From the IMG/VR virus record IMGVR_UViG_2571042636_000011: 25,526 nt of DNA; one strand, 5' to 3'. Position numbers and translations under genes: made by a program. This DNA is from a virus (Duplodnaviria > Heunggongvirae > Uroviricota > Caudoviricetes). Positions 1 to 14,655 of the stretch are shown here, piece by piece. Positions within the stretch are counted from its first letter, which is position 1, and every line of letters begins with the position of its first letter. A model generated the notes under the pieces. That model searched no databases. It was not told where the DNA came from and saw only the letters and a list, made by a program, of their open reading frames with translations.

Positions 1-1053
1 TTACGGGGTAATGCCAACCGCTGCCGCCACTTTGTCGCCACTTGGCAGCGTTGCCAGAGGATTGAAACGAAGCGCCGTTTCCAGATGATCCGGTGCCAGA
101 TGTGCGTAACGCATAGTCATTTTTATATCGTGGTGTCCGAGAATTTTTTGTAAGGCCAGAATGTTTCCACCCGACATCATGAAGTGCGCCGCAAACGTAT
201 GGCGCAGAACGTGTGTGAGTTGACCGCGAGGGAGCACGATAGACGTTTTTTCCATCACGGATAAAAATTGAAAATAACAGTCTGTGAAGAAATTGAACCC
301 ATCAAGCGCCATGATCTCTTCGTAAAGCTCTTTACTGATAGGGATGCTTCTGTTTTTCTTCCCCTTCGTTCTTACAAAGGTAATTCGGTATTTGGTCACC
401 TGTGAGCGGGTAAGATTTACGGCTTCACGCCAGCGTGCGCCAGTGCTTAAGCATATCTTAACTACCAGTGCCAGAATTGGGTCCTGACGTTTACAATCAG
501 CCAGCAATTCAACAATCTGCTCATGGGTAAGCCATGCCATCTCTTTTTCTGCGATGGTGAATTTTCGCATGTTCTCCAGTGGGTTCGGATACGACCATTC
601 GCCCAGGCGGGATAGTTCGCTAAAAACACTACTAAGATAGCTTTGCTCCAGGTTAATAGTGACTGGGCTTGCTCCTTTTTTCCATTTCTCGCTGAAGTAG
701 ATCTCACCCGTCAGGCGTTTATCTCGATAGTGGGCAAACATTTTAGATGTGAGATCGGTTGCAAGGGGATTGCCCAGAGCGTCAACCATCAACAGCAATT
801 TGTCATAGACATGCTGCCCAGCGGTTAGAGATTTACCATGTAGTTTGAACCATAGCTCAACTACGTCTTTCAGTGTTCGACGATCCACTGATTCACCCAG
901 CCAGGGCTTTGCTTCGGTTTCTTCCATCGTGTGGCGCTCAAAAGCCAGAGCTTCGCCTTTGGTGGCGAATTGTTTACGCACACGACGCCCACTACGTCCG
1001 GCGGGGTAACATTCGCAAAGCCATTTCCCTGTGGTGAGTTTTCGTACTGCCAT
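1..1053 (-). CDS. int: Tyrosine site-specific integrase (phage 186/P2 Int family), about 350 aa
   Basis: ORF 1..1209(-). From the internal Met the protein begins MAVRKLTTGKWLCECYPAG..., which matches my recollection of the 186 Int N-terminus, so the start is placed at ATG 1053..1051 with GGAGGG about 10 nt upstream. C-terminal tyrosine-recombinase signature ...THVLRHTFAAHFMMSGGNILALQKILGHHDIKMTMRYAHL. Stop TAA at 3..1. Confidence 0.9.
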   Translation of the reverse strand: MAVRKLTTGKWLCECYPAGRSGRRVRKQFATKGEALAFERHTMEETEAKPWLGESVDRRTLKDVVELWFKLHGKSLTAGQHVYDKLLLMVDALGNPLATDLTSKMFAHYRDKRLTGEIYFSEKWKKGASPVTINLEQSYLSSVFSELSRLGEWSYPNPLENMRKFTIAEKEMAWLTHEQIVELLADCKRQDPILALVVKICLSTGARWREAVNLTRSQVTKYRITFVRTKGKKNRSIPISKELYEEIMALDGFNFFTDCYFQFLSVMEKTSIVLPRGQLTHVLRHTFAAHFMMSGGNILALQKILGHHDIKMTMRYAHLAPDHLETALRFNPLATLPSGDKVAAAVGITP

Positions 1054-2948: not shown

Positions 2949-3245
2949 ATGCTGACGAAAGAACCATCATTTGCATCGCTGCTGGTAAAACAAAGCCCGG
3001 CAATGCACTACGGTCACGGCTGGATCACGGGTGAGGATGGAAAACGCTGGCATCCATGTCATTCACAAGATGAATTGCTGTCTGAATTGACCACGAGGAA
3101 ACGGAGAAAGTCCAAATGTATGCGGCAGAAAGTGAAGTGGTTTATCAGTTTCGTTACAGAGGGGAGAGTTATTCAGTACCTGAAGATGATTTGCTCTGTT
3201 GCTATCCGTCATTGTCGGGCGATGGCAGTTACTTTTTCGCGTTAA
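2949..3245 (+). CDS. Hypothetical early protein (position of 186 fil / P2 orf78)
   Basis: ATG 2949 (MLTKEPSFASLLVKQSPAMHYGHGWITGEDGKRWHPC...) with AGGTG upstream. The N-terminal about 55 aa look protein-like; the C-terminal part (KRRKSK...) overlaps the next ORF in another frame and looks low-complexity, so the true extent is uncertain. Confidence 0.35.
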   Translation: MLTKEPSFASLLVKQSPAMHYGHGWITGEDGKRWHPCHSQDELLSELTTRKRRKSKCMRQKVKWFISFVTEGRVIQYLKMICSVAIRHCRAMAVTFSR

Positions 3246-4005: not shown

Positions 4006-4232
4006 TGGCTGATGCAATGGATCTCGTACAGCAGCGCGTTGAAGAAGAACGCCAGCGCCATATCCGTGCTGCCCGTGCCAAAACGCCGGGCGTGTCCCGC
4101 GTGCTTTGCATTGAGTGTGAAGCGCCAATTCCGCCAGCACGCCGCCGCGCCATTCCAGGTGTGCAGCTTTGCATTACCTGTCAGGAAATCGCAGAGCTGA
4201 AAGGCAAACATTACAACGGAGGTGCTGTATGA
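4005..4232 (+). CDS. TraR/DksA-family C4 zinc-finger protein (P2 orf82-like)
   Basis: 75 aa with CxxC...CxxC (CIECEAPIPPARRRAIPGVQLCITCQ), typical of phage and plasmid TraR/DksA-like proteins. AGGAG 7 nt upstream of ATG 4005. Stop TGA overlaps the dam start (ATGA at 4229..4232). Confidence 0.7.
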   Translation: MADAMDLVQQRVEEERQRHIRAARAKTPGVSRVLCIECEAPIPPARRRAIPGVQLCITCQEIAELKGKHYNGGAV

Positions 4233-5086
4233 GCACCATCCTGAAATGGGCGGGAAATAAAACCGCCGTAATGTCCGAACTGAAAAAACATCTTCCAGCT
4301 GGCCCGCGACTGGTTGAACCTTTCGCGGGTTCCTGTGCTGTGATGATGGAGACGGATTATCCCAGCTATCTGGTTGCGGATATTAATCCTGATTTAATCA
4401 ACCTCTATAAAAAGGTTGCCGCTGATTGTGAATCGTTTATATCTCGCGCCAGAGTTTTATTTAAGGAAGCAAACAGGGAGGTGGCTTATTACAACATAAG
4501 GCAGGAGTTTAATTACTCAACTGAAATTACTGATTTCATGAAAGCGGTATATTTCCTGTATCTCAATCGTCACGGTTACCGTGGGTTATGTCGCTATAAC
4601 AAGAGCGGGCATTTCAACATTCCCTACGGTAATTATAAAAATCCGTATTTCCCTGAAAAAGAAATTCGCGCATTTGCAGAGAAAGCCCAACGAGCAACGT
4701 TTATCTGCGCCAGCTTTGATGAAACGCTGGCGATGTTGAAGGCGGGGGATGTGGTGTATTGCGATCCGCCGTATGACGGTACGTTTTCCAGCTATCACAC
4801 TGATGGTTTCACTGAAGATGACCAGTATCACCTGGCATCCGTTCTTGAACATCGGTCATCAGAAGGACATCCGGTCATTGTTTCTAACAGTGACACATCC
4901 CTGATCCGTTCGCTGTATCGCAATTTTACTCACCACTACATCAAGGCAAAACGCAGCATCGGCGTAGCAGCTGGTGAGAGTAAATCTGCAACAGAAATCA
5001 TCGCTGTTTCTGGGGCGCGCTGCTGGGTGGGATTTGATCCTTCGCGTGGCGTGGATAGTTCTGCCGTGTACGGAGTACGTGCATGA
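4229..5086 (+). CDS. dam: DNA adenine (N6) methyltransferase, Dam family
   Basis: Start [11 protein letters not shown] (Dam motif I, KWAGGK-like) with GGAGG upstream of ATG 4229. Catalytic motif DPPY present ([10 protein letters not shown]). Length about 285 aa. Stop overlaps the start of the A gene (ATGA). Confidence 0.85.
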
Positions 5087-7497
5087 GACATGCTGATATG
5101 AACAACTGCAGCGGCTTTAACGAGGCCGCCGCAGCATTCTCATGGAACAGCCCGAAAAAGGCGATTAACCCTTATCTGGACCCGGCGGAAGTTGCGCCGG
5201 TTTCTGCGCTTTCAAACCTGATCACTCTGTACGCTGCCGATAACAAGCAGGAACAACTGCGCCGCGAGGCACTGAGTGATCAGGTCTGGGAGCGTTATTT
5301 CTTTAATGAATCCCGTGATCCTGTCCAGCGCGAAATGGAGCAGGATAAGCTCATTAGCCGGGCAAAGCTGGTGCATGAGCAGCAGCGTTTTAATCCGGAC
5401 ATGGTCATACTGGCGGACGTTAACGCCCAGCCTTCCCATATCAGCAAGCCGCTGATGCAACGTATTGAATACTTCAGCAGCCTGGGCAGGCCAAAGGCTT
5501 ATTCCCGCTATTTGCGTGAGACGATTAAACCATGTCTGGAACGACTAGAGCATGTACGCGACAGCCAGCTATCTGCATCTTTTCGTTTTATGGCAAGCCA
5601 TGAAGGGCTGGACGGCCTGCTGATCTTGCCTGAAATGAGTCAGGATCAGGTGAAGCGCCTGTCTACCCTTGTTGCCGCGCATATGAGCATGTGCCTTGAT
5701 GCAGCTTGTGGTGATTTGTATGCCACCGATGACGTTAAGCCAGAAGAAATCCGCAAGACATGGGAAAGGGTGGCGGCGGAAACCCTGCGTCTGGATGTCA
5801 TCCCTCCTGCGTTTGAGCAACTCCGCCGGAAAAGAAACCGCCGTAAACCCGTACCCTATGAACTCATTCCGGGTTCGCTGGCGCGTATGTTGTGCGCCGA
5901 CTGGTGGTATCGGAAATTATGGAAGATGCGTTTCGAATGGCGGGAAGAGCAGTTGCGTGCTGTTTGCCTGGTCAGCAAAAAAGCATCTCCCTATGTCAGC
6001 TATGAAGCCGTGATGCATAAACGTGAGCAGCGCCGTAAGTCGCTGGAGTTTTTCCGTTCTCATGAACTGGTGAACGAAGACGGCGACACGCTGGATATGG
6101 AGGACGTGGTAAACGCCAGTAGTAGCAACCCGGCGCATCGCCGCAATGAGATGATGGCATGTGTTAAAGGTCTGGAGCTTATCGCGGAAATGCGCGGTGA
6201 CTGCGCCGTTTTCTACACCATCACCTGTCCGTCACGTTTCCATTCCACGCTAAATAACGGCAGGCCCAACCCGAACTGGACAAATGCGACGGTAAGACAA
6301 AGCAGTGATTATCTGGTCGGCATGTTTGCTGCATTTCGTAAGGCGATGTACAAAGCCGGATTGCGCTGGTATGGCGTGCGGGTGGCTGAGCCGCATCATG
6401 ACGGTACAGTTCACTGGCACCTGTTGTGTTTTATGCGCAAAAAAGATCGCCGCGCCATTACTGCTTTGTTGCGTAAGTTTGCCATTCGTGAAGACCGCGA
6501 GGAGCTGGGTAATAACACAGGACCACGCTTTAAGTCTGAGCTGATAAACCCGCGCAAAGGTACACCAACAAGCTACATCGCGAAATACATCAGTAAGAAC
6601 ATTGACGGGCGTGGTCTGGCTGGCGAGATCAGCAAGGAAACGGGTAAATCTCTGCGTGATAACGCTGAATACGTTAATGCCTGGGCGTCTCTGCATCGTG
6701 TTCAGCAATTCCGCTTCTTTGGCATTCCGGGGCGTCAGGCTTACCGTGAACTGCGATTGCTGGCTGGTCAGGCGGCAAGGCAACAGGGTGACAAAAAAGC
6801 AGGTGCGCCGGTACTGGATAACCCGCGCCTTGATGCCATTCTGGCTGCAGCTGATGCTGGTTGCTTTGCCACCTACATCATGAAGCAGGGCGGCGTACTG
6901 GTTCCCCGTAAATATCACCTCATCAGAACCGCTTATGAAATCAACGAAGAGCCGACCGCCTATGGCGATCACGGTATTCGTATTTATGGCATCTGGTCAC
7001 CCATTGCAGAGGGCAAGATCTGCACTCATGCAGTGAAGTGGAAAATGGTCCGTAAAGCCGTTGACGTTCAGGAGGCGGCAGCCGACCAGGGCGCTTGCGC
7101 CCCTTGGACTCGTGGCAATAACTGTCCCCTTGCTGAAAATTTGTACCAACAAGGGAAAGACAAATCAGCTGATGGAGATACCAGAACGGATATCACCCGT
7201 ATGGATGACAAGGAGTTGCACGATTACCTGCACAGTATGAGCAAAAAAGAGCGCCGGGAACTGGCAGCAAGGTTACGCCTGGTGAAACCGAAACGGCGTA
7301 AAGACTACAAACAGCGAATTACAGATCATCAGCGACAGCAGCTCGTGTATGAACTGAAGTCCAGGGGATTTGATGGCAGCGAGAAAGAGGTCGATTTACT
7401 CCTTCGCGGCGGCAGTATTCCGTCAGGAGCAGGCCTGCGTATCTTCTATCGGAACCAGCGTTTGCAGGAAGATGATAAGTGGCGGAACCTGTATTAA
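5083..7497 (+). CDS. A: Rolling-circle replication initiator endonuclease (P2 gpA / 186 RepA family)
   Basis: 804-aa ORF after the early genes. Contains an HxH metal-binding motif ([11 protein letters not shown]) and a tyrosine-containing region ([17 protein letters not shown]), as in P2 A-type nickases. GGAG 7 nt upstream of ATG 5083. Confidence 0.9.
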
Positions 7498-7589: not shown

Positions 7590-7609
7590 TACTGTAAATA
7601 TAAACAGTG
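7590..7609. promoter_or_regulatory. LexA (SOS) box overlapping the promoter of the tum/dinI-like operon
   Basis: tACTGTaaatataaACAGtg is a perfect CTGT-N8-ACAG with an AT-rich spacer, a close match to the E. coli LexA consensus TACTGTATATATATACAGTA. It lies about 40 nt upstream of the GGAGG/ATG at 7641..7652; -35-like TTTACA at 7567..7572. Confidence 0.6.
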
Positions 7610-7649: not shown

Positions 7650-7838
7650 ATGCAGGACTATTTTTTGGAGTCTTTGAAGCTCCAGCGCATTGATTTTTTT
7701 CTTAAGCTTGTAGCGGCTAGTGAGTGTAGTGATGAAGAGAAGGGGCTGGCTCTGCAGTGGGTTTCTGAATTGACTGATGAACTCATGGCAAAAATCAGAA
7801 CCCACGAATACAACCGCTCAATGGATGTCATCAGTTGA
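7650..7838 (+). CDS. Small SOS-controlled protein, candidate Tum-like antirepressor
   Basis: 62-aa ORF directly downstream of the LexA box, GGAGG 4 nt upstream of ATG 7650. Position corresponds to the LexA-regulated tum operon of phage 186. The sequence itself is not recognised, so the function is inferred from context. Confidence 0.4.
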   Translation: MQDYFLESLKLQRIDFFLKLVAASECSDEEKGLALQWVSELTDELMAKIRTHEYNRSMDVIS

Positions 7839-7848
7839 GGTGACTTTT

Positions 7849-8082
7849 ATGCGCATTGAAATAATGATCGATAAAGAGCAGAAGATTAGCCAGTCTACCC
7901 TGGACGCCCTTGAATCCGAGCTTTACCGCAATCTGCGCCCCCTGTATCCCAAAACGGTAATTCGTATCCGCAAAGGTAGCTCTAACGGTGTGGAACTGAC
8001 CGGACTGCAACTGGATGAAGAAAGAAAACAAGTGATGAAAATTATGCAGAAAGTGTGGGAAGACGACAGCTGGCTGCATTAA
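7849..8082 (+). CDS. dinI: DinI-family protein (SOS-response modulator)
   Basis: From ATG 7849 (GAGG 8 nt upstream): MRIEIMIDKEQKISQSTLDALESELYRNLRPLYPKTVIRIRKGSSNGVELTGLQLDEERKQVMKIMQKVWEDDSWLH. This aligns along its length with E. coli DinI as I remember it (MRIEVTIAK...DALAGEL...ETWESADDW). The ORF track gives a longer ORF from 7777. Confidence 0.75.
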   Translation: MRIEIMIDKEQKISQSTLDALESELYRNLRPLYPKTVIRIRKGSSNGVELTGLQLDEERKQVMKIMQKVWEDDSWLH

Positions 8083-8193
8083 GAAACGTTGCCTCCAGGA
8101 GGATTCATTCTGATGGGGGCTAGTTTGGGCAACGAGTGAAACGAGGCGTAAGGTGGGCGGGCATTTTGATAAGTGATCGTCCGCTTTGTGCTA

Positions 8194-8213
8194 GAAGCGG
8201 TCGTTACCGCTTC
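8194..8213. terminator. Hairpin between the convergent dinI-like and HerA-like genes (possible bidirectional terminator)
   Basis: GAAGCGGT-cgtt-ACCGCTTC, a perfect 8-bp stem with 4-nt loop. Only a weak T-run follows, so intrinsic terminator function is uncertain. Confidence 0.3.
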
Positions 8214-8226
8214 AGCACTTTGTTAA

Positions 8227-10086
8227 TTAGTGAGGGCTGGTTATTACGTAGTCGCTCTGGTCATCCTCTCCCAGCCTCTCAGGTATTAAATCGTTGAAGG
8301 AAATAGTATTACTCTTAGGTTTTTCTTCAATTGGAAGTTCAGCTACCCTTAATTTGAGCGGCATGGGGCAGACGATACCACTAAAAATACAGGTTCCTGT
8401 AGATAGCGTTGGAATCGACTCTTCAGTCAGTCGATCTATATATGATACTGATTTTTCAATTGCGTACAGATCATTCTGATTAATAAGGCGATGAATAAAA
8501 TAATTGTGTGCTTGGGATATGATTGTCGACGATATATCATTAGGGCGTTGACTGGAAATTGTGATAAAAACTCCAAATTTTCTCCCCTCCTTTATGATTT
8601 CCTCAAAAGTTTCCAGACGATAATCTCTCCAACTTTCCGTTTCCCGAAAAGAAGTATTAGACAAAATATTGTGGGCTTCATCTATAATGATGTGCAGTGT
8701 AGATTTCTCTGTAGACATTTTCTTCATATTGTAAGCCCACTTGGCTATCAAAAGAGGAAGCGTTTTTTTCATGGTTATATTAACCATATTTAGATTCACA
8801 ACCGTGAAATTATGTTCACCCCAAAAGTCAGACTGTCCGGAAGTATCAAATATTTTGGCTATATCTTTACGGTTAGCACTCATTCTATTTATAACTGGTG
8901 AAATATGTTCAGGGTTAGACTTGTTAGATAAATATTCCTGTATTAACTGTAAGTACATAAAGTCCAACAGTTCTTCAATCATATCAGTTTTAAATGAAAA
9001 ATTGCTTGCAAGACTGAATAGATAGGAGCGCTCAGTATCAGCTTCTGTATTGAAAATACTACCACCCCTCAATTTCCATTTATATGCAGTTGAATGATAC
9101 TCAAGATCAGATATAAGTTCTGGGTCATCTTTGAAAATTGGGCTAAGAAACTGATTTATAGTATCGCATTTGGGTTTGTCGCTACTAAAGAGATTTTGTC
9201 TGACTTTTTTCTTCAGGATATTGCGCATAAACTCAAGAGGATTATCAGCAGTCATCACTTTCTTGCGAAACTCAAGAACTCTCTTCAGGAAAGGTTTCTG
9301 TGTTTTGTCTGTTGCATCGGTTAGAACTGAGAGCATATCATGCTCAAGTAGAACCTCTCTGGGTAGAGGAAGTTTGTCACCATTTGCATGGTGCGTGTTG
9401 AGATTATAAACCGTCTTCTCGTCAGTAATACAGCGTGGGGCAGTATATTCTCCATTAAAGTCGAATAGAATAAATTTGCATCTTTCACTAAAGTGGTTGC
9501 CGAGAATATGTTTAACTTGGGCAATACCTGCTTTGTATAGCGCGGCTAGGGTATTTGACTTTCCGCTGCCTGTATTACCGAAAATGGCAATGTGGGAATT
9601 AATAAGACCATTGATTGGTAGTGCAATTTCAATATCTTCAAGATCTGTACGAGTAAACCTCATTACAGTTTCGTCTGCATCAGCTATCTGATGAACCGTC
9701 TGTATCATCTCTTCAGTTACCACGAAGACTTCATTGCCGATGAGAGGTAGTTCACGCGAACCACCAATGAAGCAACCAGTACGATCAATGTAACCCGTAA
9801 GAGTAGAGGTCAGGTATCGCCGATATCGCCAGGCATCACTGCCGCTCCCAGCGAGATGTTTTTCCTCAATGATTCGTTCCGCTTCAACCTTGCCGATCAG
9901 GCTCATGAAACCTTTTTTGATCTCAATGAAGCTACCCACTGATACATTTCTTAGAACTTTTCCCTGATAAAACAAGTCACTGAGATTTTTGTTTTTATCG
10001 ACCAAAATTGTCACAGCGCGTCCAGAAACCTCACAGACTTCGCCTATACGGAGCACCGCTTCCTCTTCAGTAAAATGCCTGCTCAT
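8227..10086 (-). CDS. herA: HerA-like ATPase (HAS-barrel plus RecA-like P-loop NTPase), predicted partner of the upstream SIR2-like protein
   Basis: About 619 aa from ATG 10086..10084, which overlaps the SIR2 stop (ATGA); GGGAGG upstream. Walker A AIFGNTGSGKSNT and Walker B LHIIIDEAHN. N-terminal beta-rich segment (RIGEVCEVSGRAVTILVDK...GSFIEIKKGFMSLIGKVEAERI) is consistent with a HerA HAS barrel. AT-rich codon usage unlike the phage core. Confidence 0.75.
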   Translation of the reverse strand: MSRHFTEEEAVLRIGEVCEVSGRAVTILVDKNKNLSDLFYQGKVLRNVSVGSFIEIKKGFMSLIGKVEAERIIEEKHLAGSGSDAWRYRRYLTSTLTGYIDRTGCFIGGSRELPLIGNEVFVVTEEMIQTVHQIADADETVMRFTRTDLEDIEIALPINGLINSHIAIFGNTGSGKSNTLAALYKAGIAQVKHILGNHFSERCKFILFDFNGEYTAPRCITDEKTVYNLNTHHANGDKLPLPREVLLEHDMLSVLTDATDKTQKPFLKRVLEFRKKVMTADNPLEFMRNILKKKVRQNLFSSDKPKCDTINQFLSPIFKDDPELISDLEYHSTAYKWKLRGGSIFNTEADTERSYLFSLASNFSFKTDMIEELLDFMYLQLIQEYLSNKSNPEHISPVINRMSANRKDIAKIFDTSGQSDFWGEHNFTVVNLNMVNITMKKTLPLLIAKWAYNMKKMSTEKSTLHIIIDEAHNILSNTSFRETESWRDYRLETFEEIIKEGRKFGVFITISSQRPNDISSTIISQAHNYFIHRLINQNDLYAIEKSVSYIDRLTEESIPTLSTGTCIFSGIVCPMPLKLRVAELPIEEKPKSNTISFNDLIPERLGEDDQSDYVITSPH

Positions 10087-11126
10087 CTCGAGCCTCCCAG
10101 ATAGCACGTGATAATGTTATTCATTACCGGAAAATCAACATTTCTTCCCGGCCGATAAATAATCTCTACGTTTGAGTAATCCCGAAATTTCTCCATAAAG
10201 CCGTTAACACTGGCCTCATCGAAAGCAAAGATCAGTAGCTTCAGGGTGGCGTTGCGCAGGGCTTTTTTAGTTATCGTTTCAATGTGCTCATCAGCAAACG
10301 AGAACCCAAAGACAATTAGTAAAGTTGCTTCTTTATCAAGCTCGTTGGAATAGGTTCTCAGTAAATCATAATAAACGTTCTGTAGTAGAGTCTCTTTAAA
10401 CTTCTCCTTACGTGGAAGAATAAGTGCATGAGCAAGTACCCATCCTTTCATTTCGGCTAGGGTGGGAAAGTCAAGCGGCTTAATATCTGCAATACGATAA
10501 ATGATTTTCCCTTTAGAATGCTGCCAAGAGAGCGAACCATGAAGTTTTATAAGGTTAACAGTAGGAAGCTCAACTTTATAATTATACAGATTTCCGGTTG
10601 CACTTACAGAATGATTAAAGCTACCCGCATCAAATTCCGCATCTCCCAAAATACTTGCTCTTCTATTGAATCCATCATTAAAAAGAATATTGTTATTACG
10701 TGTGGCAGCTTCTTCGATGAATAAATCATAATTAGTTGTAAAAACGTTAATACGCCTCGGAAGTAGGCCAGTTCGGCGGCGGGTCAGTATCTTTTCCAGT
10801 GAAGACATAAATGCATCATAATTTGCACGGGTACATTCCAAATCGGTGATCACCTGAGGTGCGAAGGGGGTGCCGTAGCCGCGCTTCAACATGCATTCAT
10901 GAGGTAGCCAAACATCTGACAAAAAGTCAGCTGCCATCCTTAAGTATTCATCTTCCTGTTCATCATTAATAAGCTGCTGAAGATCCGTTTCGATTGTCCC
11001 CAGTACTTTAATCGCTGGGAGGGATGCACCTGATCCGATGAGAAAGTTAATGTTAGCTGACTGAAATATCCGCTCTAAGTAGTCTCGGTCACTATCGTTA
11101 CCGTAGTATGCGCGCTTGACTGCCAT
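10083..11126 (-). CDS. SIR2-like (sirtuin-fold, predicted NAD+-consuming) defence effector protein
   Basis: About 347 aa from ATG 11126..11124 (AAGGA SD; the ORF track starts at TTG 11141). Gly-rich NAD-binding loop FLIGSGASLP, the TTNYD motif (VFTTNYDLFIEEA) and a candidate catalytic His in KLHGSLSW, as in defence-associated SIR2 domains. Coupled to the HerA-like gene. Confidence 0.75.
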   Translation of the reverse strand: MAVKRAYYGNDSDRDYLERIFQSANINFLIGSGASLPAIKVLGTIETDLQQLINDEQEDEYLRMAADFLSDVWLPHECMLKRGYGTPFAPQVITDLECTRANYDAFMSSLEKILTRRRTGLLPRRINVFTTNYDLFIEEAATRNNNILFNDGFNRRASILGDAEFDAGSFNHSVSATGNLYNYKVELPTVNLIKLHGSLSWQHSKGKIIYRIADIKPLDFPTLAEMKGWVLAHALILPRKEKFKETLLQNVYYDLLRTYSNELDKEATLLIVFGFSFADEHIETITKKALRNATLKLLIFAFDEASVNGFMEKFRDYSNVEIIYRPGRNVDFPVMNNIITCYLGGSR

Positions 11127-11426
11127 CTTATCCTTCCACAAAACATTGGATTAGTCTGTAATTTATTTAATCTTAACGCCGAGCTCAATACTTTAACATC
11201 ACTTCTTCTGGCGATTGCTATGAGCCCTTCTTGATAAAAAGTTCGATCGGGAAACTGATCCTTTATGCCACAAGTTTTCTAGCTATCCTCAAAAAATTGG
11301 TGTTAAAACTGTGCCAACAAAGTTGCAAGGTTCGCTTCTCGCTCACAGCGAACTTTCATCTTTGTAAACCCGTATGATTCGCTTTTCAGCAGTCATTCAG
11401 ATACGGATTTACGCTTCCCTTGGCAG

Positions 11427-11456
11427 CGCATGACTATGACGCATGAGATCGCATGA
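11427..11456. repeat. Three direct repeats of CGCATGA at 13- and 10-nt spacing
   Basis: cgcatgactatgacgcatgagatcgcatga. Copies start at 11427, 11440 and 11450, in the non-coding region about 100 bp left of the candidate cos sequence. Function unknown. Confidence 0.4.
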
Positions 11457-11551
11457 TCGTTTAAGGATCGTTTTTGCTGAAGTCAGCCAGAACTGGCGTG
11501 CTTTTGCTTATGTCATGCAGGTGCATGAAAACCACTACATAAAGCGGGCAG

Positions 11552-11570
11552 GCGTGGCGGGGATACGAGC
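11552..11570. other. Candidate cohesive-end (cos) site of the P2/186 type
   Basis: GGCGTGGCGGGGATACGAG followed by GC-rich CGCGCGC. The first 13 nt match the start of the 19-nt P2/186 cos overhang as I remember it (P2 GGCGAGGCGGGGAAAGCAC). It lies in the prophage position between the right-end accessory genes and Q. Identification is from memory and unverified. Confidence 0.3.
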
Positions 11571-11650
11571 GCGCGCAATGCTATGATCTGGCTCTTTCAA
11601 AACTGTTAACGGTTCTTCACATTCTTAAATGATCATGGTAGCTTAAGCAT

Positions 11651-11781
11651 GCACATGTAGGCAGATTTGTTGGTTGTGGTATCGCAATCAGTGATCTAAA
11701 TGTTAGATGGATTCGCCTTCTGACATCCTTGTAGCCATTCTTGGGCTGTCCTATGCTTTGCGTAAGAGTGCCTACATGTGC
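11651..11781 (+). ncRNA. msr-msd: Retron msr-msd non-coding RNA (template for msDNA), bounded by a1/a2 inverted repeats
   Basis: 13-bp inverted repeat GCACATGTAGGCA (11651..11663) and TGCCTACATGTGC (11769..11781) flanks about 105 nt, immediately upstream of the RT gene (starts 11817), which is the canonical a1-msr-msd-a2-RT arrangement. The 5' part (CATGTAGGCAGATTTGTTGGTTGTG..ATCGCAA.CAGTG) resembles an enterobacterial retron msr that I recall. Exact ends are approximate. Confidence 0.5.
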
Positions 11782-11816
11782 CTACCCTAACTGATAATCA
11801 AGGTTGATTTTTAGAT

Positions 11817-13574
11817 ATGGCACCCCTATCAATTTTAGAACGTTTACAAAACGCTGCTAACAGGCAAGATTTGGCTAGTATCTTGAATCTTAAAACTGCT
11901 TTTCTTACGGATGTTATTTATCGTTTAAAAGCTGAAACGCAGTATACACAATTTACTATCCCTAAAAAAAACGGAGCGCCGAGAGTCATATCAGCACCTA
12001 CCACTAAGCTCAAAGATATTCAACGTAGATTAGCTGATGTTTTATATTTATGTCGTGCAGAAATTTATAAAAAATATAATATTAATCCAGTTTTATCTCA
12101 TGGGTTTGAAAAAGAAAAGTCAATTATTACGAATGCTGAACGGCATAGAGGTAAAACGCTACTACTAAATATAGACCTTGAGGATTATTTTGATAGTTTT
12201 AATTTTGGACGTGTTAGAGGTTTTTTCTTATCAAACAGAGATTTTAGATTAAATAATACTGTTGCTACAACGATCGCACAAATTGCATGTTTTCAGAATG
12301 GACTTCCTCAAGGAAGCCCATGCTCTCCAATTATAAGTAACTTAATCAGTGGAATTCTTGATATAAGATTATCAAAGTTAGCAAAGAAATACGGATGCAA
12401 TTATTCACGGTATGCTGATGATCTTACATTTTCAACTAATAAAAAAACATTTCCAAAAGAGATTGCTGATGTTGGCGGAGAGTCTGTAACCCTAAGTCCA
12501 ACTTTAATTAAAGAGATTATAAAGGCTGGCTTTAAAATAAATGATAAAAAGACAAGGGTTTGTTATAAAACATCACGACAAGATGTTACTGGGTTGACTG
12601 TTAATAAAAAAGTGAATGTTGGCAAAGAATATGCAAAAGTAACGCGTGCCATGGCTCATTCTCTTTATAAAGATGGTTCTTTTGTTATTGTTACTGAATC
12701 AGGAAAGATTGAAAAAGGTACATGTGCTAAATTAGAAGGCCGTTTTGGATTTATTGACTCAATAGATAAATATAATAATTTAAAACTAAAGAACGCAAGA
12801 CAGTTGGAAAAGTACCAAAGTGTAAATCATGGATTAAACTACACTGCAAAATTGAATTCGAGAGAAAAAGCCTACAGTTATTTTCTATACTATAAAAATT
12901 TTCATGGAATGGAAATGCCAACAATACTCACTGAGGGTAAAACAGACCGTGTATATTTAAAGTGTGCTTTGAAGTCATTGGCGAATTCATATCCTTTATT
13001 GTTTAATTCTTCTGATGATAGCTCTAAAAATGAGTATCGTGTTAATTTTTTTAAAGCAACTGAAAAAACAAGCTATTTTCTTGACATTTCTGGCGGTGCT
13101 ACAGACTTCAAAAGATTTATATTAAGATACCAAGAACAAAAAAAGAGGTTCGAGAAATTTAAACCAAAGCACCCTGTTATTATGCTTCTTGATAATGACT
13201 CAGGCCCTAAAGATTTATTAAATCACTTAAAGGATAAAGTAAAAAATTGTCCAAATGATGTTGATACTATTCGTAAGGCAAGGTATACCCACATATTTGA
13301 CAATCTCTATTTGTTATTAACACCATTGCTTCCTGGAGGGAAAGAGTCTTGTATGGAGGATTTATTTGATAGCACGGTACTATCAACGGTGCTTGATGGA
13401 AAGACATTTAATAAATCTAATGATACGGATACAAAAACAGAATATGGTAAGCATGTGTTTTCAACAAAGGTTATAAAGGCAAATTGTAAAACAATTAGTT
13501 TTGAAAAGTTTAAAGTTATTTTTGATGGTATTGAGGAAATTATTGCAGATTATTCAAAGAGGTGCAAAGTATAA
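11817..13574 (+). CDS. ret: Retron-type reverse transcriptase with a C-terminal TOPRIM-like (OLD-family-like) domain, 585 aa
   Basis: RT motifs seen in the translation: motif A LLLNIDLEDYFDSF, motif B QGLPQGSPCSPIISNL, motif C YSRYADDLTFS (YADD). C-terminal about 250 aa contain a conserved Glu motif (ILTEGKTDRVYLK) and a DxD motif (MLLDNDSGP), consistent with a TOPRIM fold. Very AT-rich codon usage. Confidence 0.9.
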   Translation: MAPLSILERLQNAANRQDLASILNLKTAFLTDVIYRLKAETQYTQFTIPKKNGAPRVISAPTTKLKDIQRRLADVLYLCRAEIYKKYNINPVLSHGFEKEKSIITNAERHRGKTLLLNIDLEDYFDSFNFGRVRGFFLSNRDFRLNNTVATTIAQIACFQNGLPQGSPCSPIISNLISGILDIRLSKLAKKYGCNYSRYADDLTFSTNKKTFPKEIADVGGESVTLSPTLIKEIIKAGFKINDKKTRVCYKTSRQDVTGLTVNKKVNVGKEYAKVTRAMAHSLYKDGSFVIVTESGKIEKGTCAKLEGRFGFIDSIDKYNNLKLKNARQLEKYQSVNHGLNYTAKLNSREKAYSYFLYYKNFHGMEMPTILTEGKTDRVYLKCALKSLANSYPLLFNSSDDSSKNEYRVNFFKATEKTSYFLDISGGATDFKRFILRYQEQKKRFEKFKPKHPVIMLLDNDSGPKDLLNHLKDKVKNCPNDVDTIRKARYTHIFDNLYLLLTPLLPGGKESCMEDLFDSTVLSTVLDGKTFNKSNDTDTKTEYGKHVFSTKVIKANCKTISFEKFKVIFDGIEEIIADYSKRCKV

Positions 13575-13585
13575 CTGTAATCACA

Positions 13586-13607
13586 GGCAAAGAGTATGCT
13601 CTTTGCC
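13586..13607 (+). terminator. Hairpin terminator between the convergent RT and Q genes
   Basis: GGCAAAGAG-tatg-CTCTTTGCC, a perfect 9-bp stem, followed by TTGTATTGT. Located 12 nt after the RT stop and 17 nt before the Q stop on the other strand. Confidence 0.5.
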
Positions 13608-13623
13608 TTGTATTGTGGGACGA

Positions 13624-14655
13624 TTACATATCTAAGTTATATTCTGTAAATGCGATAATATCTGTACCTAACCAGACATTAATCTCCTTGATCCGTTTTT
13701 GCATTGATATCAATTCGTTTCTTACGAATACTTTACTAGCCTTTTCCACATCCCCAAATCCCCCGACATTATTTGGCATTATCCCCATCATCTGTGGCGG
13801 AACGCGATGTGCTGCCATCATGTCATCCCGGCTCACGTTCTTGATATTTAGAAACTCATCCTTCGCCGCAACTTCTGACAAAGGGATGATCTGAAGGCCG
13901 TCCTTTTTGCCGTTAGGCGAGTACATAAACAGGTTGCGGAAGTTACCCGGACCTTTGGCACTTTTCATTGCATTGCGGAGGTTGTTCACGTCCTCCTGGT
14001 TCTGCGCAGCATCGGTCATGTACATGATGAAGCCTGCATGACTACCGTTAATGTAATACTTGCGGCGGAACAGCGTGGCGGACTCATTGAGCAGGGCGGA
14101 CGGAATGGCAGAAAGATAGCCGGGTAGGCCGTAGATCTCCTGGTTAATGTCCGGTTCCATCAGATGAAAAATGCTACCTTTCGTGAACTGATACGGCTGG
14201 GTTGTCATACCATATTGCACAAACCAGTAGGTATCCAGGTCTAACCCGCGTCGGGTGTATTTTGCCAGAGCAGGCTCAAGGGCGATAACTTCACCGAAGC
14301 GGTTCGTGCGTTTCTCCAGGTAGGCGTTACCAAATACCAGATAGTCCTGCACAAAACGTGAAAAAGCCTGCTGGCTGAGCAGCGGGTGAGGGATGTAGGT
14401 ACTGGTCAGAATGTTGCATTTTACTGCAATCGGTGAGCTGTGATGCACGGCAGCGCGGAAGGTTCGTGCCAGTCCGTCAAAGCTGACGGGCGGCTCATAC
14501 CAGCGGTCCATCTGTACGCATTCCATATAGTCCAGCAGTTCACGGCGGTCCAGAACAGGAACGGGATCGCCAAAGCTGAATGCTTCGGCTGAAGTCTGGC
14601 TTTTATGCTTGAGCTGATTCGTCGCCGCAGCGCGGTTTTTCTTACTCTTTCCCAT
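13624..14655 (-). CDS. Q: Portal (capsid portal vertex) protein, P2 gpQ family
   Basis: About 343 aa, the size and position of P2 Q (first packaging gene beside the cos region, transcribed leftward with P). ATG at 14655..14653; the ORF track starts at TTG 14658. Start overlaps the P stop. Confidence 0.85.
   Translation of the reverse strand: MGKSKKNRAAATNQLKHKSQTSAEAFSFGDPVPVLDRRELLDYMECVQMDRWYEPPVSFDGLARTFRAAVHHSSPIAVKCNILTSTYIPHPLLSQQAFSRFVQDYLVFGNAYLEKRTNRFGEVIALEPALAKYTRRGLDLDTYWFVQYGMTTQPYQFTKGSIFHLMEPDINQEIYGLPGYLSAIPSALLNESATLFRRKYYINGSHAGFIMYMTDAAQNQEDVNNLRNAMKSAKGPGNFRNLFMYSPNGKKDGLQIIPLSEVAAKDEFLNIKNVSRDDMMAAHRVPPQMMGIMPNNVGGFGDVEKASKVFVRNELISMQKRIKEINVWLGTDIIAFTEYNLDM

Follow-up and report, generated by a model that had tools for sequence, protein, structure and literature searches.

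We consider it very probable that the DNA between the DinI/Tum-like gene and the portal gene Q of this prophage is a known cos-proximal hotspot holding two separately acquired cassettes that flank cos, and that their pairing is a product of shuffling and not a functional unit. In this model the right-end slot (DinI/Tum to cos, occupied by tin/old in P2 and by orf97 in 186) carries sir2 and herA as an operon of two genes on the minus strand, and the left-end slot (cos to Q) an Ec67-family type I-C retron, made up of the ncRNA, the gene for RT-Toprim and a terminator of its own. An earlier sequence-only reading had proposed two modules in opposite orientation, SIR2/HerA on the minus and a retron on the plus strand, within a prophage-borne defence hotspot of a P2/186-type genome. 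This part of the reading is borne out, as both modules were recovered by PADLOC at near full length and also by Pfam, and aligned relatives show conserved flanks with varying cargo.

The window, i.e. the whole stretch of 25,526 nucleotides that was analyzed, comes from a P2/186-like (Peduoviridae) E. coli prophage of approximately 35.0 kb, which has rcdA and ybjL on either side and in which the P2-like genes are complete from int through ogr. The gene order around the interval is fully P2-like in RefSeq, and the Pfam families Phage_GPA, DinI and Phage_portal were matched in the window. The hotspot is located between replication gene A (together with DinI/Tum) on one side and Q on the other. 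The conserved flank of the right-end slot on its left is the DinI/Tum-like gene (7849..8082, plus strand; Pfam DinI E=1e-22; “DinI-like family protein” in RefSeq), which is kept in every comparator prophage; the conserved flank of the left-end slot on its right is Q itself (13624..14655, minus strand; Pfam Phage_portal and RefSeq). These ends at 8082 and 13624, and the resulting interval of about 5.5 kb, had been given in the sequence-only reading and agree with our coordinates. A LexA-box-like palindrome, CTGTAAATATAAACAG (7592..7607, plus strand), matches CTGT-N8-ACAG perfectly and lies 5' of a small ORF and the DinI/Tum-like operon, at a position equivalent to the annotated LexA site and p95 of phage 186. 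The DNA of the interval is already present in RefSeq exactly as here, with matching annotation.

The locus has been published before, as have the two defence families and the way they act, and a retron position between cos and the portal gene has been on record since 1996 (Dodd & Egan). The cos-proximal gpA-gpQ hotspot of P2-like phages was reported by Rousset et al. 2022 (PMC9122126), who also cite the tin/old “TO region” of P2 (Odegrip 2006). The published list of systems at this hotspot includes both SIR2+HerA and type-IC retrons, and loci with multiple systems are reported there as well (PMC9122126). Our interval shares with the published hotspot the cos-adjacent position, the conserved flanks, the highly variable cargo of low GC content and the small defence systems. 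In the passages considered from these surveys the hotspot is treated as one locus, whereas here cos (11551-11569) sits between the modules and splits the interval into two independently assorting slots; the view of a single island with cos outside the cargo, as in the sequence-only reading, is thereby not upheld. The size of the interval also differs. From the DinI/Tum-like stop to the Q stop it measures 5.5 kb here, compared to a published mean of 3.2 kb for gpA-gpQ (PMC9122126), to 1.3 kb from DinI/Tum stop to portal stop in 186, and to 3.4 kb from A stop to Q stop in P2, which has tin/old and no DinI gene at this place. The statement that such genomes normally carry only a short segment was therefore too strong.

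The segment dividing the slots is a conserved cos core (11327..11577), common to prophages whatever the cargo on either side. Its left breakpoint falls at 11327-11338 and its right breakpoint at 11575-11577. The core was matched in 1,277 of 5,426 complete E. coli genomes, always with a match end at 11575-11577, and it is the sole part of the interval present in deposited phage genomes (Fels-2, SopEPhi and Klebsiella, Yersinia and Erwinia phages, covering five genera). Positions 11512-11576 align ungapped and in register with the circularised cos junction of 186 (52 of 65 positions, and 15 of 19 in the annotated 19-nt end), and the corresponding alignment to the circularised junction of P2 yields 45 of 58. 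From this alignment the putative cohesive-end sequence with the terminase cut site is GGCGTGGCGGGGATACGAG (11551..11569), and the interval is judged to adjoin a cos site of functional type. At the left edge of the core a boundary hairpin was found, GGTTCGCT...AGCGAACT(T), followed by TTCATCTTTGT (11329..11356; z=−3.0). It occurs in all P2 contexts irrespective of the cargo and likewise at the border of a cassette copy outside phages, and its stem shows a compensatory change from GTTCGC/GCGAAC to GTCCGC/GCGGAC. By position it is the analogue of terminator t95b of 186, and a similar function may be assumed.

In more than 1,200 genomes the left-end cargo starts invariably 7-8 nt beyond the terminase cut. 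This regularity raises the idea that the gpA-gpQ “hotspot” consists of two mechanistically distinct exchange sites set by the packaging site, with cos cleavage or hairpins promoting the swapping, which we regard as rather unlikely. If cos cleavage (e.g. recombination at the virion DNA ends) or hairpins did drive the exchange, this would represent a dedicated route for the shuffling of immune genes, and active swapping would explain why defence cargo clusters at cos in P2 and in the satellite P4.

A further hint towards separate acquisition arises from the base composition. The AT-richness of the cargo noted before is confirmed, since GC content is not uniform across the window: positions 8227-13607 have 37.9% GC compared to 52.5% in the remainder, which makes them the lowest-GC 5.4-kb stretch of the window, and GC3 is 0.22-0.40 in the cargo genes compared to 0.56-0.70 in gpA, Q and P. 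The low-GC interval is broken mid-way by the 251-bp conserved segment at 11327-11577 with cos inside, which has 49.8% GC. Both cargoes look AT-rich and foreign, and they differ from each other in composition (40.0% vs 33.2% GC; GC3 0.37-0.40 vs 0.22).

The right-end cassette encodes a HerA-family ATPase of 619 aa (8227..10086, minus strand; RefSeq CDS) and a candidate SIR2-family NADase of 347 aa (10083..11126, minus strand). The open reading frames extend over 8227-10107(−) and 10083-11141(−), and the true starts at 10086 and 11126 were assigned by RefSeq and profile register. As sir2 and herA share a 4-nt ATGA overlap at 10083-10086, they form one operon. The HerA protein matches PADLOC HerA PDLC04097 (E=6e-267, profile positions 3-616 of 618) and Pfam DUF87/HerA, with intact Walker A (GNTGSGKS at residue 170) and Walker B (IIIDEAH at 466) motifs and distant matches to the HerA chains of the solved SIR2-HerA complexes 8yho, 8j4u and 9c1m. 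The SIR2 protein matches PADLOC SIR2 PDLC04080 (E=6e-211, positions 1-347 of 347) and Pfam SIR2_2; its motifs GSGAS31, TTNYD130 and KLHGS194 line up with those of the solved SIR2 chains 8yhx and 8j4u, and the catalytic Asn/Asp and His of the SIR2 NADase fold are present in TTNYD (130) and KLHGS (194).

Compared to solved or named SIR2-HerA/Nezha systems (Gao 2020; 8j4u, 8su9, 8yhx), the adjacent and translationally coupled sir2-herA genes, the SIR2 Rossmann loop, the catalytic N/H motifs and the HerA Walker A and B motifs are the same, and the dedicated PADLOC SIR2-HerA profiles are matched over their full length. The pair is nevertheless very divergent from these systems (partial alignments, E=1e-11 to 1e-27), alignments of SIR2 and HerA to PDB entries are of partial length only (E=1e-21 to 1e-27), and this SIR2 is about 70-80 aa shorter than the named ones (347 vs 415-428 aa). 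The NCBIfam anti-phage equivalogs NF042942, NF042943 and NF042944 reached 99.8, 138.7 and 117.5 bits, below their cutoffs of 500, 800 and 850, which indicates a divergent subfamily and not an equivalog of the validated proteins. It also differs in subfamily from the published P2 SIR2+HerA (system #14) of PMC9122126. Sir2-HerA systems of E. coli fall into types I-III with eight clusters and act by abortive infection (PMC13434337). Given the distance of the present proteins from all solved or named systems, their trigger and exact activities may differ. The tin/old genes of P2 and orf97 of 186 occupy the same right-end slot between replication/SOS genes and cos with unrelated proteins and mechanisms, and tin/old have the same orientation as the SIR2-HerA cassette, on the minus strand and transcribed away from cos.

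The region upstream of the operon (11127..11326, minus strand) is specific to the cassette, without counterpart in prophages with other cargo, and has 91% identity to the copy outside phages; it is the presumed promoter region, in which the consensus promoter scan called no strong sigma-70 consensus. On the other side, homology to prophages with other cargo stops at 8190-8206, and a left border hairpin (8188..8217; −20.4 kcal/mol, z=−6.5) with the core stem GAAGCGGT/ACCGCTTC at 8193-8212 marks the junction of backbone and cassette, 10 nt past the HerA stop. It lacks a T-run and was for this reason not called by the terminator scan. The core hairpin is present in loci with this SIR2-HerA cassette and is not kept in the copy outside phages. 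We also note that the right-end cargo is bracketed by the junction hairpins at 8193-8212 and 11329-11356.

The left-end slot spans only about 150-180 bp from cos to Q in P2 and 186. Here it begins with a leader between cos and a1 (11578..11650, plus strand), which is common only to prophages with this retron and is the presumed promoter; the consensus promoter scan identified no promoters for the cassettes. In other Ec67-family loci the similarity to this locus begins only at a1. The msr-msd ncRNA (11651..11781, plus strand) has a1 at 11651-11663 and a2 at 11769-11781, which form a 13-nt perfect inverted repeat, and a predicted priming G at 11664 in CAGA, the priming context reported for Eco2 (PMC6868368). 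It folds at −54.8 kcal/mol (z=−5.0). Aligned with genuine Ec67 and two other lineages, it shows an invariant msr hairpin, and four a1/a2 pairs are kept by compensatory changes across the four lineages. A search of the ncRNA against Rfam matched no family.

The following gene encodes an RT-Toprim fusion protein of 585 aa (11817..13574, plus strand), assigned to retron type I-C of the Ec67 family by NCBIfam (retron_Ec67_fus, 722.7 bits compared to a cutoff of 450), PADLOC (RT-Toprim_I-C, E=3e-223) and PDB (Ec67 chains 9lm3 and 9i2f, E=5e-217 with full-length alignment), together with Pfam RVT_1. Its residues YADD 199-202, E373, D377, D459 and D461 correspond to YADD, E374, D378, D460 and D462 of Eco2 (PMC12916289). 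There is no separate effector gene: directly downstream of the RT gene lie a terminator hairpin and Q, which is convergent, and only cos lies upstream of leader and ncRNA. The terminator hairpin (13585..13608, with a 10-bp stem) is the core of a border structure at 13583-13611 that scored terminator-like (z=−5.4). Hairpins at both borders had been noticed before, and both are confirmed. The terminator is part of the retron cassette and is identical, or altered by one flanking base, in loci with this retron; other cargoes each have their own, different strong hairpin beside the portal stop codon. Homology to prophages with other cargo picks up again at 13635-13696.

Retron-Eco2 (Ec67, type I-C1) has the same architecture and location, with a1/a2, the priming G in CAGA, a near-identical msr, and a lone gene for RT-Toprim in which YADD and the E/D/DxD Toprim residues are present; an additional effector is missing there too. 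Its position is likewise immediately right of cos, converging on the portal gene, and we found genuine Ec67 (L014) in the same slot. This is in agreement with the report that Ec67 and Ec86 in a 186-related prophage replace about 180 bp from cos to the packaging-gene terminator (Dodd & Egan 1996, via PMC6868368). The msd (template) region, the leader and the terminator of the present retron are in contrast unrelated to those of Eco2, and with only 57% identity of the RT to Ec67 it represents a new lineage of a known kind.

By analogy to characterized relatives, each cassette, probably with its own transcription signals, would be expressed on its own in the lysogen and shield host and prophage by abortive infection. 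Phage proteins could release the NADase of the SIR2-HerA complex (with HerA ATPase and nuclease activities), leading to NAD+ depletion. The msDNA produced by the retron RT would bring RT-Toprim into oligomers and keep the Toprim nuclease caged; after degradation of the msDNA by DenB- or A1-type phage nucleases, as described for Eco2 (PMC12916289), the freed Toprim could cleave tRNA and stop translation. Cutting of cos by the terminase would place the two cassettes at opposite ends of the virion DNA.

The cassettes might instead serve conflicts of the prophage itself, either by excluding P2-like rivals or P4-type satellites with the same cos or as prophage-stabilising addiction. Both adjoin cos, the one sequence common to P4 satellites, the hotspots of P2 and P4 are both cos-adjacent (PMC9122126), abortive-infection systems are toxin-like, and orf97 of 186 in the same slot is annotated to block 186 infection when expressed from a plasmid. 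We still regard this as quite unlikely, as the relative Eco2 protects against T2, T4, T5 and many BASEL phages, Sir2-HerA types protect against unrelated lytic phages (110-phage panel), and the sequence holds no specific tie of either system to P2 or P4.

A further argument for separate cassettes comes from their distribution in the set of 5,426 complete E. coli genomes, in which SIR2-HerA carriers were counted at ≥99% identity. This SIR2-HerA occurs in 13 genomes, whose left-end cargo is of about six or seven kinds: this retron (two), HipA/HIRAN (three), AIPR (three), hypotheticals (two) and ParA+RelA/SpoT, a GTP pyrophosphokinase and an St85-family retron (one each). Prophages sharing it lose homology 7-8 nt past cos. 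This retron occurs in 14 genomes with five right-end cargoes, four besides SIR2-HerA (two): a hypothetical protein, DUF8087 where annotated (seven), other hypotheticals (three), ASCH+REase and HEPN. Altogether at least ten different cargoes were seen between identical or near-identical flanks, and of six unrelated P2-like prophages sampled via the cos core, five carry cargo both to its left and to its right. The two slots flanking cos, each with its own sharp breakpoints, thus assort independently, and the exchange could proceed by recombination through the conserved cos core and the backbone.

A single co-selected defence island, inherited as a unit and providing layered or synergistic immunity, is by these data very unlikely. 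It is true that both modules lie within one low-GC interval of about 5.5 kb, that the pair is found identically in two of the 5,426 genomes, and that a 2026 survey reports multiple systems, spread over different hotspots, in 10% of defence-carrying P2 elements (PMC13586616). Over all cos-core loci the pair is also nominally enriched (2 observed vs 0.14 expected, P=0.008). This enrichment vanishes if the two 100%-identical loci are counted as one event or if the related phage lineage is taken as the universe; in the closely related lineage it is, if anything, rarer than expected (2 observed vs 5.1 expected). Since the two loci with both modules share 100% identity over 6.3 kb and similar positions in the chromosome, they probably go back to one event, and co-occurrence above chance is not robustly supported. 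Moreover, cos and its conserved core of 250 bp part the modules, these differ in GC and GC3, the partner is absent or replaced by another in 11 of 13 SIR2-HerA and 12 of 14 retron genomes, and each cassette also occurs alone outside P2 prophages. The coordinated action suggested by the sequence-only reading is thus unsupported. That the retron came by its own mobility (“retronphage” or retrotransposition) and not as ordinary hotspot cargo is extremely improbable: it encodes a reverse transcriptase and Ec67-family retrons are found at several unrelated chromosomal sites, but the same slot with the same breakpoint 7-8 nt past cos also takes non-RT cargo (HipA/HIRAN, AIPR, DUF262, KAP NTPase, DprA), neither a target-site duplication nor an msDNA-derived junction is visible at the locus, and the leader and terminator DNA of the cassette do not stem from the msd template.

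As a discovery the locus matters little given what is published. It provides a short-SIR2 variant of SIR2-HerA as a candidate defence system, and a natural lineage of Ec67-family retrons that shares 57% identity with Eco2 and has a conserved msr but a different msd, which could interest retron engineers. For P2-like phages it represents a clean example of why “gpA-gpQ hotspot” loci are better divided at cos in surveys, since a locus scored as a single “arrangement” merges two independently assorting cassettes, leading to inflated arrangement diversity and spurious pairings of systems.

Matches of 100% DNA identity in RefSeq genomes place the window within a complete P2/186-like E. coli prophage of ~35.0 kb, with rcdA and ybjL as its chromosomal neighbors and an imperfect direct repeat of ~26 nt at its ends. 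The gene order in these genomes is int, CI, CII, fil, Dam methylase, gpA, a small ORF, a DinI-like gene, the interval under study and portal Q, with terminase P, capsid, lysis and tail genes, D and ogr downstream of Q. The ORFs within 8083-13623 agree with the sequence-only reading: a HerA-like gene (8227-10086, minus strand; ORF and RefSeq annotation) and a SIR2-like gene (10083-11126, minus strand) share an ATGA overlap, and a non-coding gap of 675 bp separates the latter from the gene of a 585-aa reverse transcriptase (RT; 11817-13574, plus strand). PADLOC profiles were matched over approximately their full length (HerA E=6e-267, SIR2 E=6e-211, RT-Toprim_I-C E=3e-223), and Pfam reports DUF87/HerA, SIR2_2 and RVT_1 for the cargo genes and Phage_GPA, DinI and Phage_portal for the flanks. 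The GC content is not uniform: 8227-13607 has 37.9% compared to 52.5% elsewhere in the window, and is its lowest-GC stretch at the 5.4-kb scale. HerA and SIR2 have a GC3 of 0.37-0.40 and RT has one of 0.22, compared to 0.56-0.70 for gpA, Q and P. Hairpins are present at both borders (8188-8217, z=-6.5; 13583-13611, z=-5.4), the second being additionally called terminator-like. Family scans, composition and folding confirm what had been observed before as a whole, i.e. the genes, the low GC and the border hairpins. The interpretation stands only in part: the region is a defense hotspot but not a single island, as cos lies inside it, and a coordinated unit finds no support.

The cohesive-end sequence of cos, GGCGTGGCGGGGATACGAG, is located in the non-coding gap at 11551-11569. 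A pattern search of the window for 186 cos with up to three mismatches gave no match because the site differs at four positions; it was resolved by alignment to the circular junctions of 186 and P2, rebuilt from linear records in which the first 19 nt are annotated as cohesive end. The stretch 11512-11576 aligns ungapped and in register with the cohesive end to both junctions, with 52/65 identical positions for 186 (15/19 inside the cohesive end) and 45/58 for P2. The sequence-only reading had left cos outside the cargo island; it falls inside, between the modules. In the cos core the GC content climbs back to 49.8%. A cos block of ~150-250 bp is the only part of the interval matching deposited phage genomes (n=50,697 searched), among them Fels-2, SopEPhi and RE2010 as well as Klebsiella, Yersinia and Erwinia phages; neither the SIR2-HerA cassette nor the retron cassette was found in this collection. 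Among 5,426 complete E. coli genomes, 1,277 have a match to the block, which stops at 11575-11577 every time. To the left of the cos cut ~150 nt are conserved, while to the right P2, 186 and the window's phage have only the heptamer (T/C)GCGCGC in common. The sharp left-end boundary 7-8 nt past cos would most simply represent the limit of purifying selection on cos.

From gpA to 11575-11577, prophages with the same SIR2-HerA match the window at 99.3-99.95% identity; their homology ends 6-8 nt beyond the cohesive end, and the DNA from there to the 3' end of Q is unrelated. In prophages with the same retron, homology is lost at 8190-8206 and is back at 11327-11338. The alignments thus define two slots, one at the right end (~8201-11326) and one at the left end (11578-13623), with the cos core (11327-11577) between them. 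The single island proposed before therefore gives way to two slots, each with its own breakpoints. The right-end slot holds tin/old in P2 and orf97 in 186, whereas the window has SIR2-HerA there; the left-end slot is “empty” in P2 and 186 (~145-165 bp from cos to the tQ/tW terminator), whereas the window carries the retron.

The left-end cargo of the 13 genomes carrying SIR2-HerA at at least 99% identity is the window's retron (2), HipA/HIRAN (3), AIPR (3), hypotheticals (2), ParA+RelA/SpoT (1), a GTP pyrophosphokinase (1) or a St85-family retron (1). The right-end cargo of the 14 genomes with the window's retron is SIR2-HerA (2), a hypothetical protein (7; DUF8087 in other records), other hypotheticals (3), ASCH+restriction endonuclease (1) or a HEPN protein (1). 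Across both sets the flanks are conserved and the cargo is variable, the point that the alignment to related prophages was meant to check, and the left and right cargoes assort freely. Among six unrelated P2-like prophages sampled via cos-core matches, five carry cargo on both sides of cos, including that of an E. coli B derivative, which has the Ec86-type retron, and one has an empty left end. Judged by these comparisons, the slot architecture is general for P2-like prophages.

The suggestion that both systems form a coordinated unit finds no support. SIR2-HerA and the retron occur together in only 2 out of 5,426 complete E. coli genomes. Both loci lie at similar chromosomal positions and match each other over 6.3 kb with 100% identity, and therefore probably reflect one event. 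If all 1,323 cos-core loci are taken as the reference, the pair shows nominal enrichment (0.14 expected, 2 observed, P=0.008), but preferential co-occurrence is not robust: P becomes 0.11 if the pair is scored as one event, and among 36 loci with a cos core at least 95% identical the pair is under-represented (5.1 expected, 2 observed). The base composition differs between the two cassettes, and outside P2 prophages SIR2-HerA and Ec67-family retrons are each found without the other.

The SIR2 protein contains the glycine-rich loop GSGAS31, TTNYD130 and KLHGS194, which align with their counterparts in SIR2 of two solved complexes, 8yhx and 8j4u; HerA contains Walker A GNTGSGKS170 and Walker B IIIDEAH466. 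Both proteins are remote from the solved representatives (PDB E=1e-11 to 1e-27, partial lengths) and stay below the NCBIfam equivalog cutoffs for SIR2-HerA, and SIR2 of solved or curated representatives is ~70-80 aa longer than that of the window. The window's SIR2-HerA is a divergent subfamily. According to a 2026 study, Sir2-HerA of E. coli falls into eight clusters, and four of these (Nezha, types I-III) were validated as defenses that act by abortive infection (PMC13434337). We further report that the entire cassette (window 8187/8204-11357) recurs with 91% identity in comparator locus L017 (4001-7150; NZ_CP061754.1), a non-prophage chromosomal island next to ypjA with a restriction endonuclease, a TPR protein and an ankyrin-repeat protein as neighbors. 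This non-prophage copy is present in 3 genomes. Its recurrence implies that cassettes are exchanged between a P2 hotspot and a chromosomal defense island.

The RT scores 722.7 bits against a curated NCBIfam Ec67-family threshold of 450, and aligns end-to-end to the solved Ec67/Eco2 chains 9lm3 and 9i2f (E=5e-217, 57% identity). All residues essential in Eco2 (YADD 199-202, Toprim E374, D378, D460, D462; PMC12916289) are kept as YADD 199-202, E373, D377, D459 and D461. An Rfam scan of the whole window (E<=1) matched no family, and the retron ncRNA was therefore identified via repeats, folding and comparison to Ec67. A perfect 13-nt inverted repeat (a1 11651-11663, a2 11769-11781) lies upstream of the RT, the enclosed RNA folds with -54.8 kcal/mol (z=-5.0), and G11664 immediately 3' of a1 stands in a CAGA context, the reported priming context of Eco2 (PMC6868368). 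The Ec67 ncRNA reference was taken from the L014 genome, in which the RT matches the PDB Ec67 chain at 99.8% identity; this genuine Ec67 locus lies within the cos-to-Q slot of a different P2-like prophage. In a four-lineage ncRNA alignment the msr is nearly invariant and the msd divergent, and compensatory changes preserve four a1/a2 pairs. The retron is a distinct lineage of type I-C.

Two side observations concern this retron family. The RefSeq Ec67 RT (L014 1486-3426) has 646 aa, and its first ~60 codons overlap the msr-msd ncRNA. Both the alignment and the PDB protein indicate a start ~180 nt downstream, so the RefSeq start codon is mis-annotated. Another Ec67-family lineage (RT 50-55% identical), with an ncRNA msr part almost identical to the window's, is present in about 530 complete E. 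coli genomes, most of them from human isolates. The two loci examined (L015 and L016, e.g. NZ_CP030337.1 950178-952095) are non-P2 chromosomal sites, one adjoining dhaR and an “ABC-three component system” gene.

A strong hairpin occurs ~5-25 nt from the portal stop codon in nearly every P2-like locus compared (L006-L023, L001, L003), and its sequence varies with the left-end cargo. We considered the 13585-13608 hairpin as conserved phage backbone (tQ/tW terminator) and rejected this, since the sequence differs with each cargo; it is common to loci with the window's retron and belongs to the retron cassette. A portal-side terminator is always present but moves with the cassette. At 11329-11356, on the left border of the cos core, lies a hairpin that is kept in every P2 context regardless of right-end cargo (L010 ~3002-3030, L012 ~1571-1598, L014 ~1189-1216), with a compensatory stem change from GTTCGC/GCGAAC to GTCCGC/GCGGAC. 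It is also kept at the edge of the non-phage SIR2-HerA copy (L017 ~7124-7150), where homology ends directly after it. Its positional counterpart in 186 is terminator t95b, and it could represent a junction or recombination motif, or merely a terminator. Its loop motif is not a dispersed repeat, as it occurs once per locus and always at the junction.

Further observations concern the flanks. A perfect LexA-box palindrome, CTGTAAATATAAACAG, at 7592-7607 precedes a 62-aa ORF (7650-7838) and the DinI/Tum-like gene, an arrangement corresponding to the SOS-controlled p95/tum operon of 186. Transcription reading through from this box would be antisense to HerA unless the 8193-8212 hairpin stops it. 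From the DinI/Tum stop codon to the slot boundary (8083-8190), ~105 nt are conserved across all comparators and carry no annotated feature; 186 has terminator t95a 23 nt past tum. A D12-class DNA adenine methylase gene (4229-5086, Pfam E=1e-76) lies directly upstream of gpA; a Dam methylase was also reported for the original Ec67 element, 34 kb at ~19 min, and rcdA/ybjL, where the present prophage sits, maps to about 19 min in K-12. GC is low (35-42%) in a second stretch at ~1000-2250, which spans the integrase 5' end, a small ORF and the CI repressor gene; this is the immunity region, typically a mosaic part of P2-like phages. A 240-aa hypothetical protein is encoded inside the prophage between attL and the integrase gene (partial at window 1-297, complete at comparator L005 11876-12598, minus strand) with only sub-threshold Pfam matches (HEPN_RiboL-PSP E=0.004). 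It occupies the “integrase-att” site, a minor cargo site of P2 elements (PMC13586616), and may be a third accessory or defense gene.

With respect to mechanism, both cassettes appear self-contained, with intact catalytic motifs, on either side of cos. By analogy to characterized systems, SIR2-HerA would assemble as a complex in the lysogen and be activated by phage proteins, and NAD+ depletion and DNA damage could then arrest the infected cell (PMC13434337, PMC11514289, PMC11472057). The retron RT would copy msd into msDNA, which may scaffold RT-Toprim oligomers and cage the Toprim nuclease; degradation of msDNA by phage nucleases such as DenB or A1 would free Toprim to cleave tRNAs and halt translation (PMC12916289, PMC12405507). 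Left and right cargo might be reshuffled independently through recombination in the conserved cos core and backbone.

The cos-proximal gpA-gpQ region was defined as a P2 defense hotspot from 18,150 loci, with “SIR2 + HerA” and “putative type-IC retron” in its catalogue and more than one system in many hotspots (PMC9122126), and was confirmed by a 2026 survey (PMC13586616). In a 186-related prophage, Ec67 and Ec86 take the place of ~180 bp that otherwise lie between cos and the terminator of the packaging genes, as Dodd & Egan (1996) showed (summarized in PMC6868368). The SIR2-HerA/retron locus is therefore a new allele combination of a known kind and is ordinary for this phage family. The split in two slots is implicit in the older P2/186 literature and absent from the portions of the hotspot surveys considered here (PMC9122126, PMC13586616). 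What is added is the explicit demonstration that cos divides the “hotspot” into two slots, which assort independently and have defined breakpoints.
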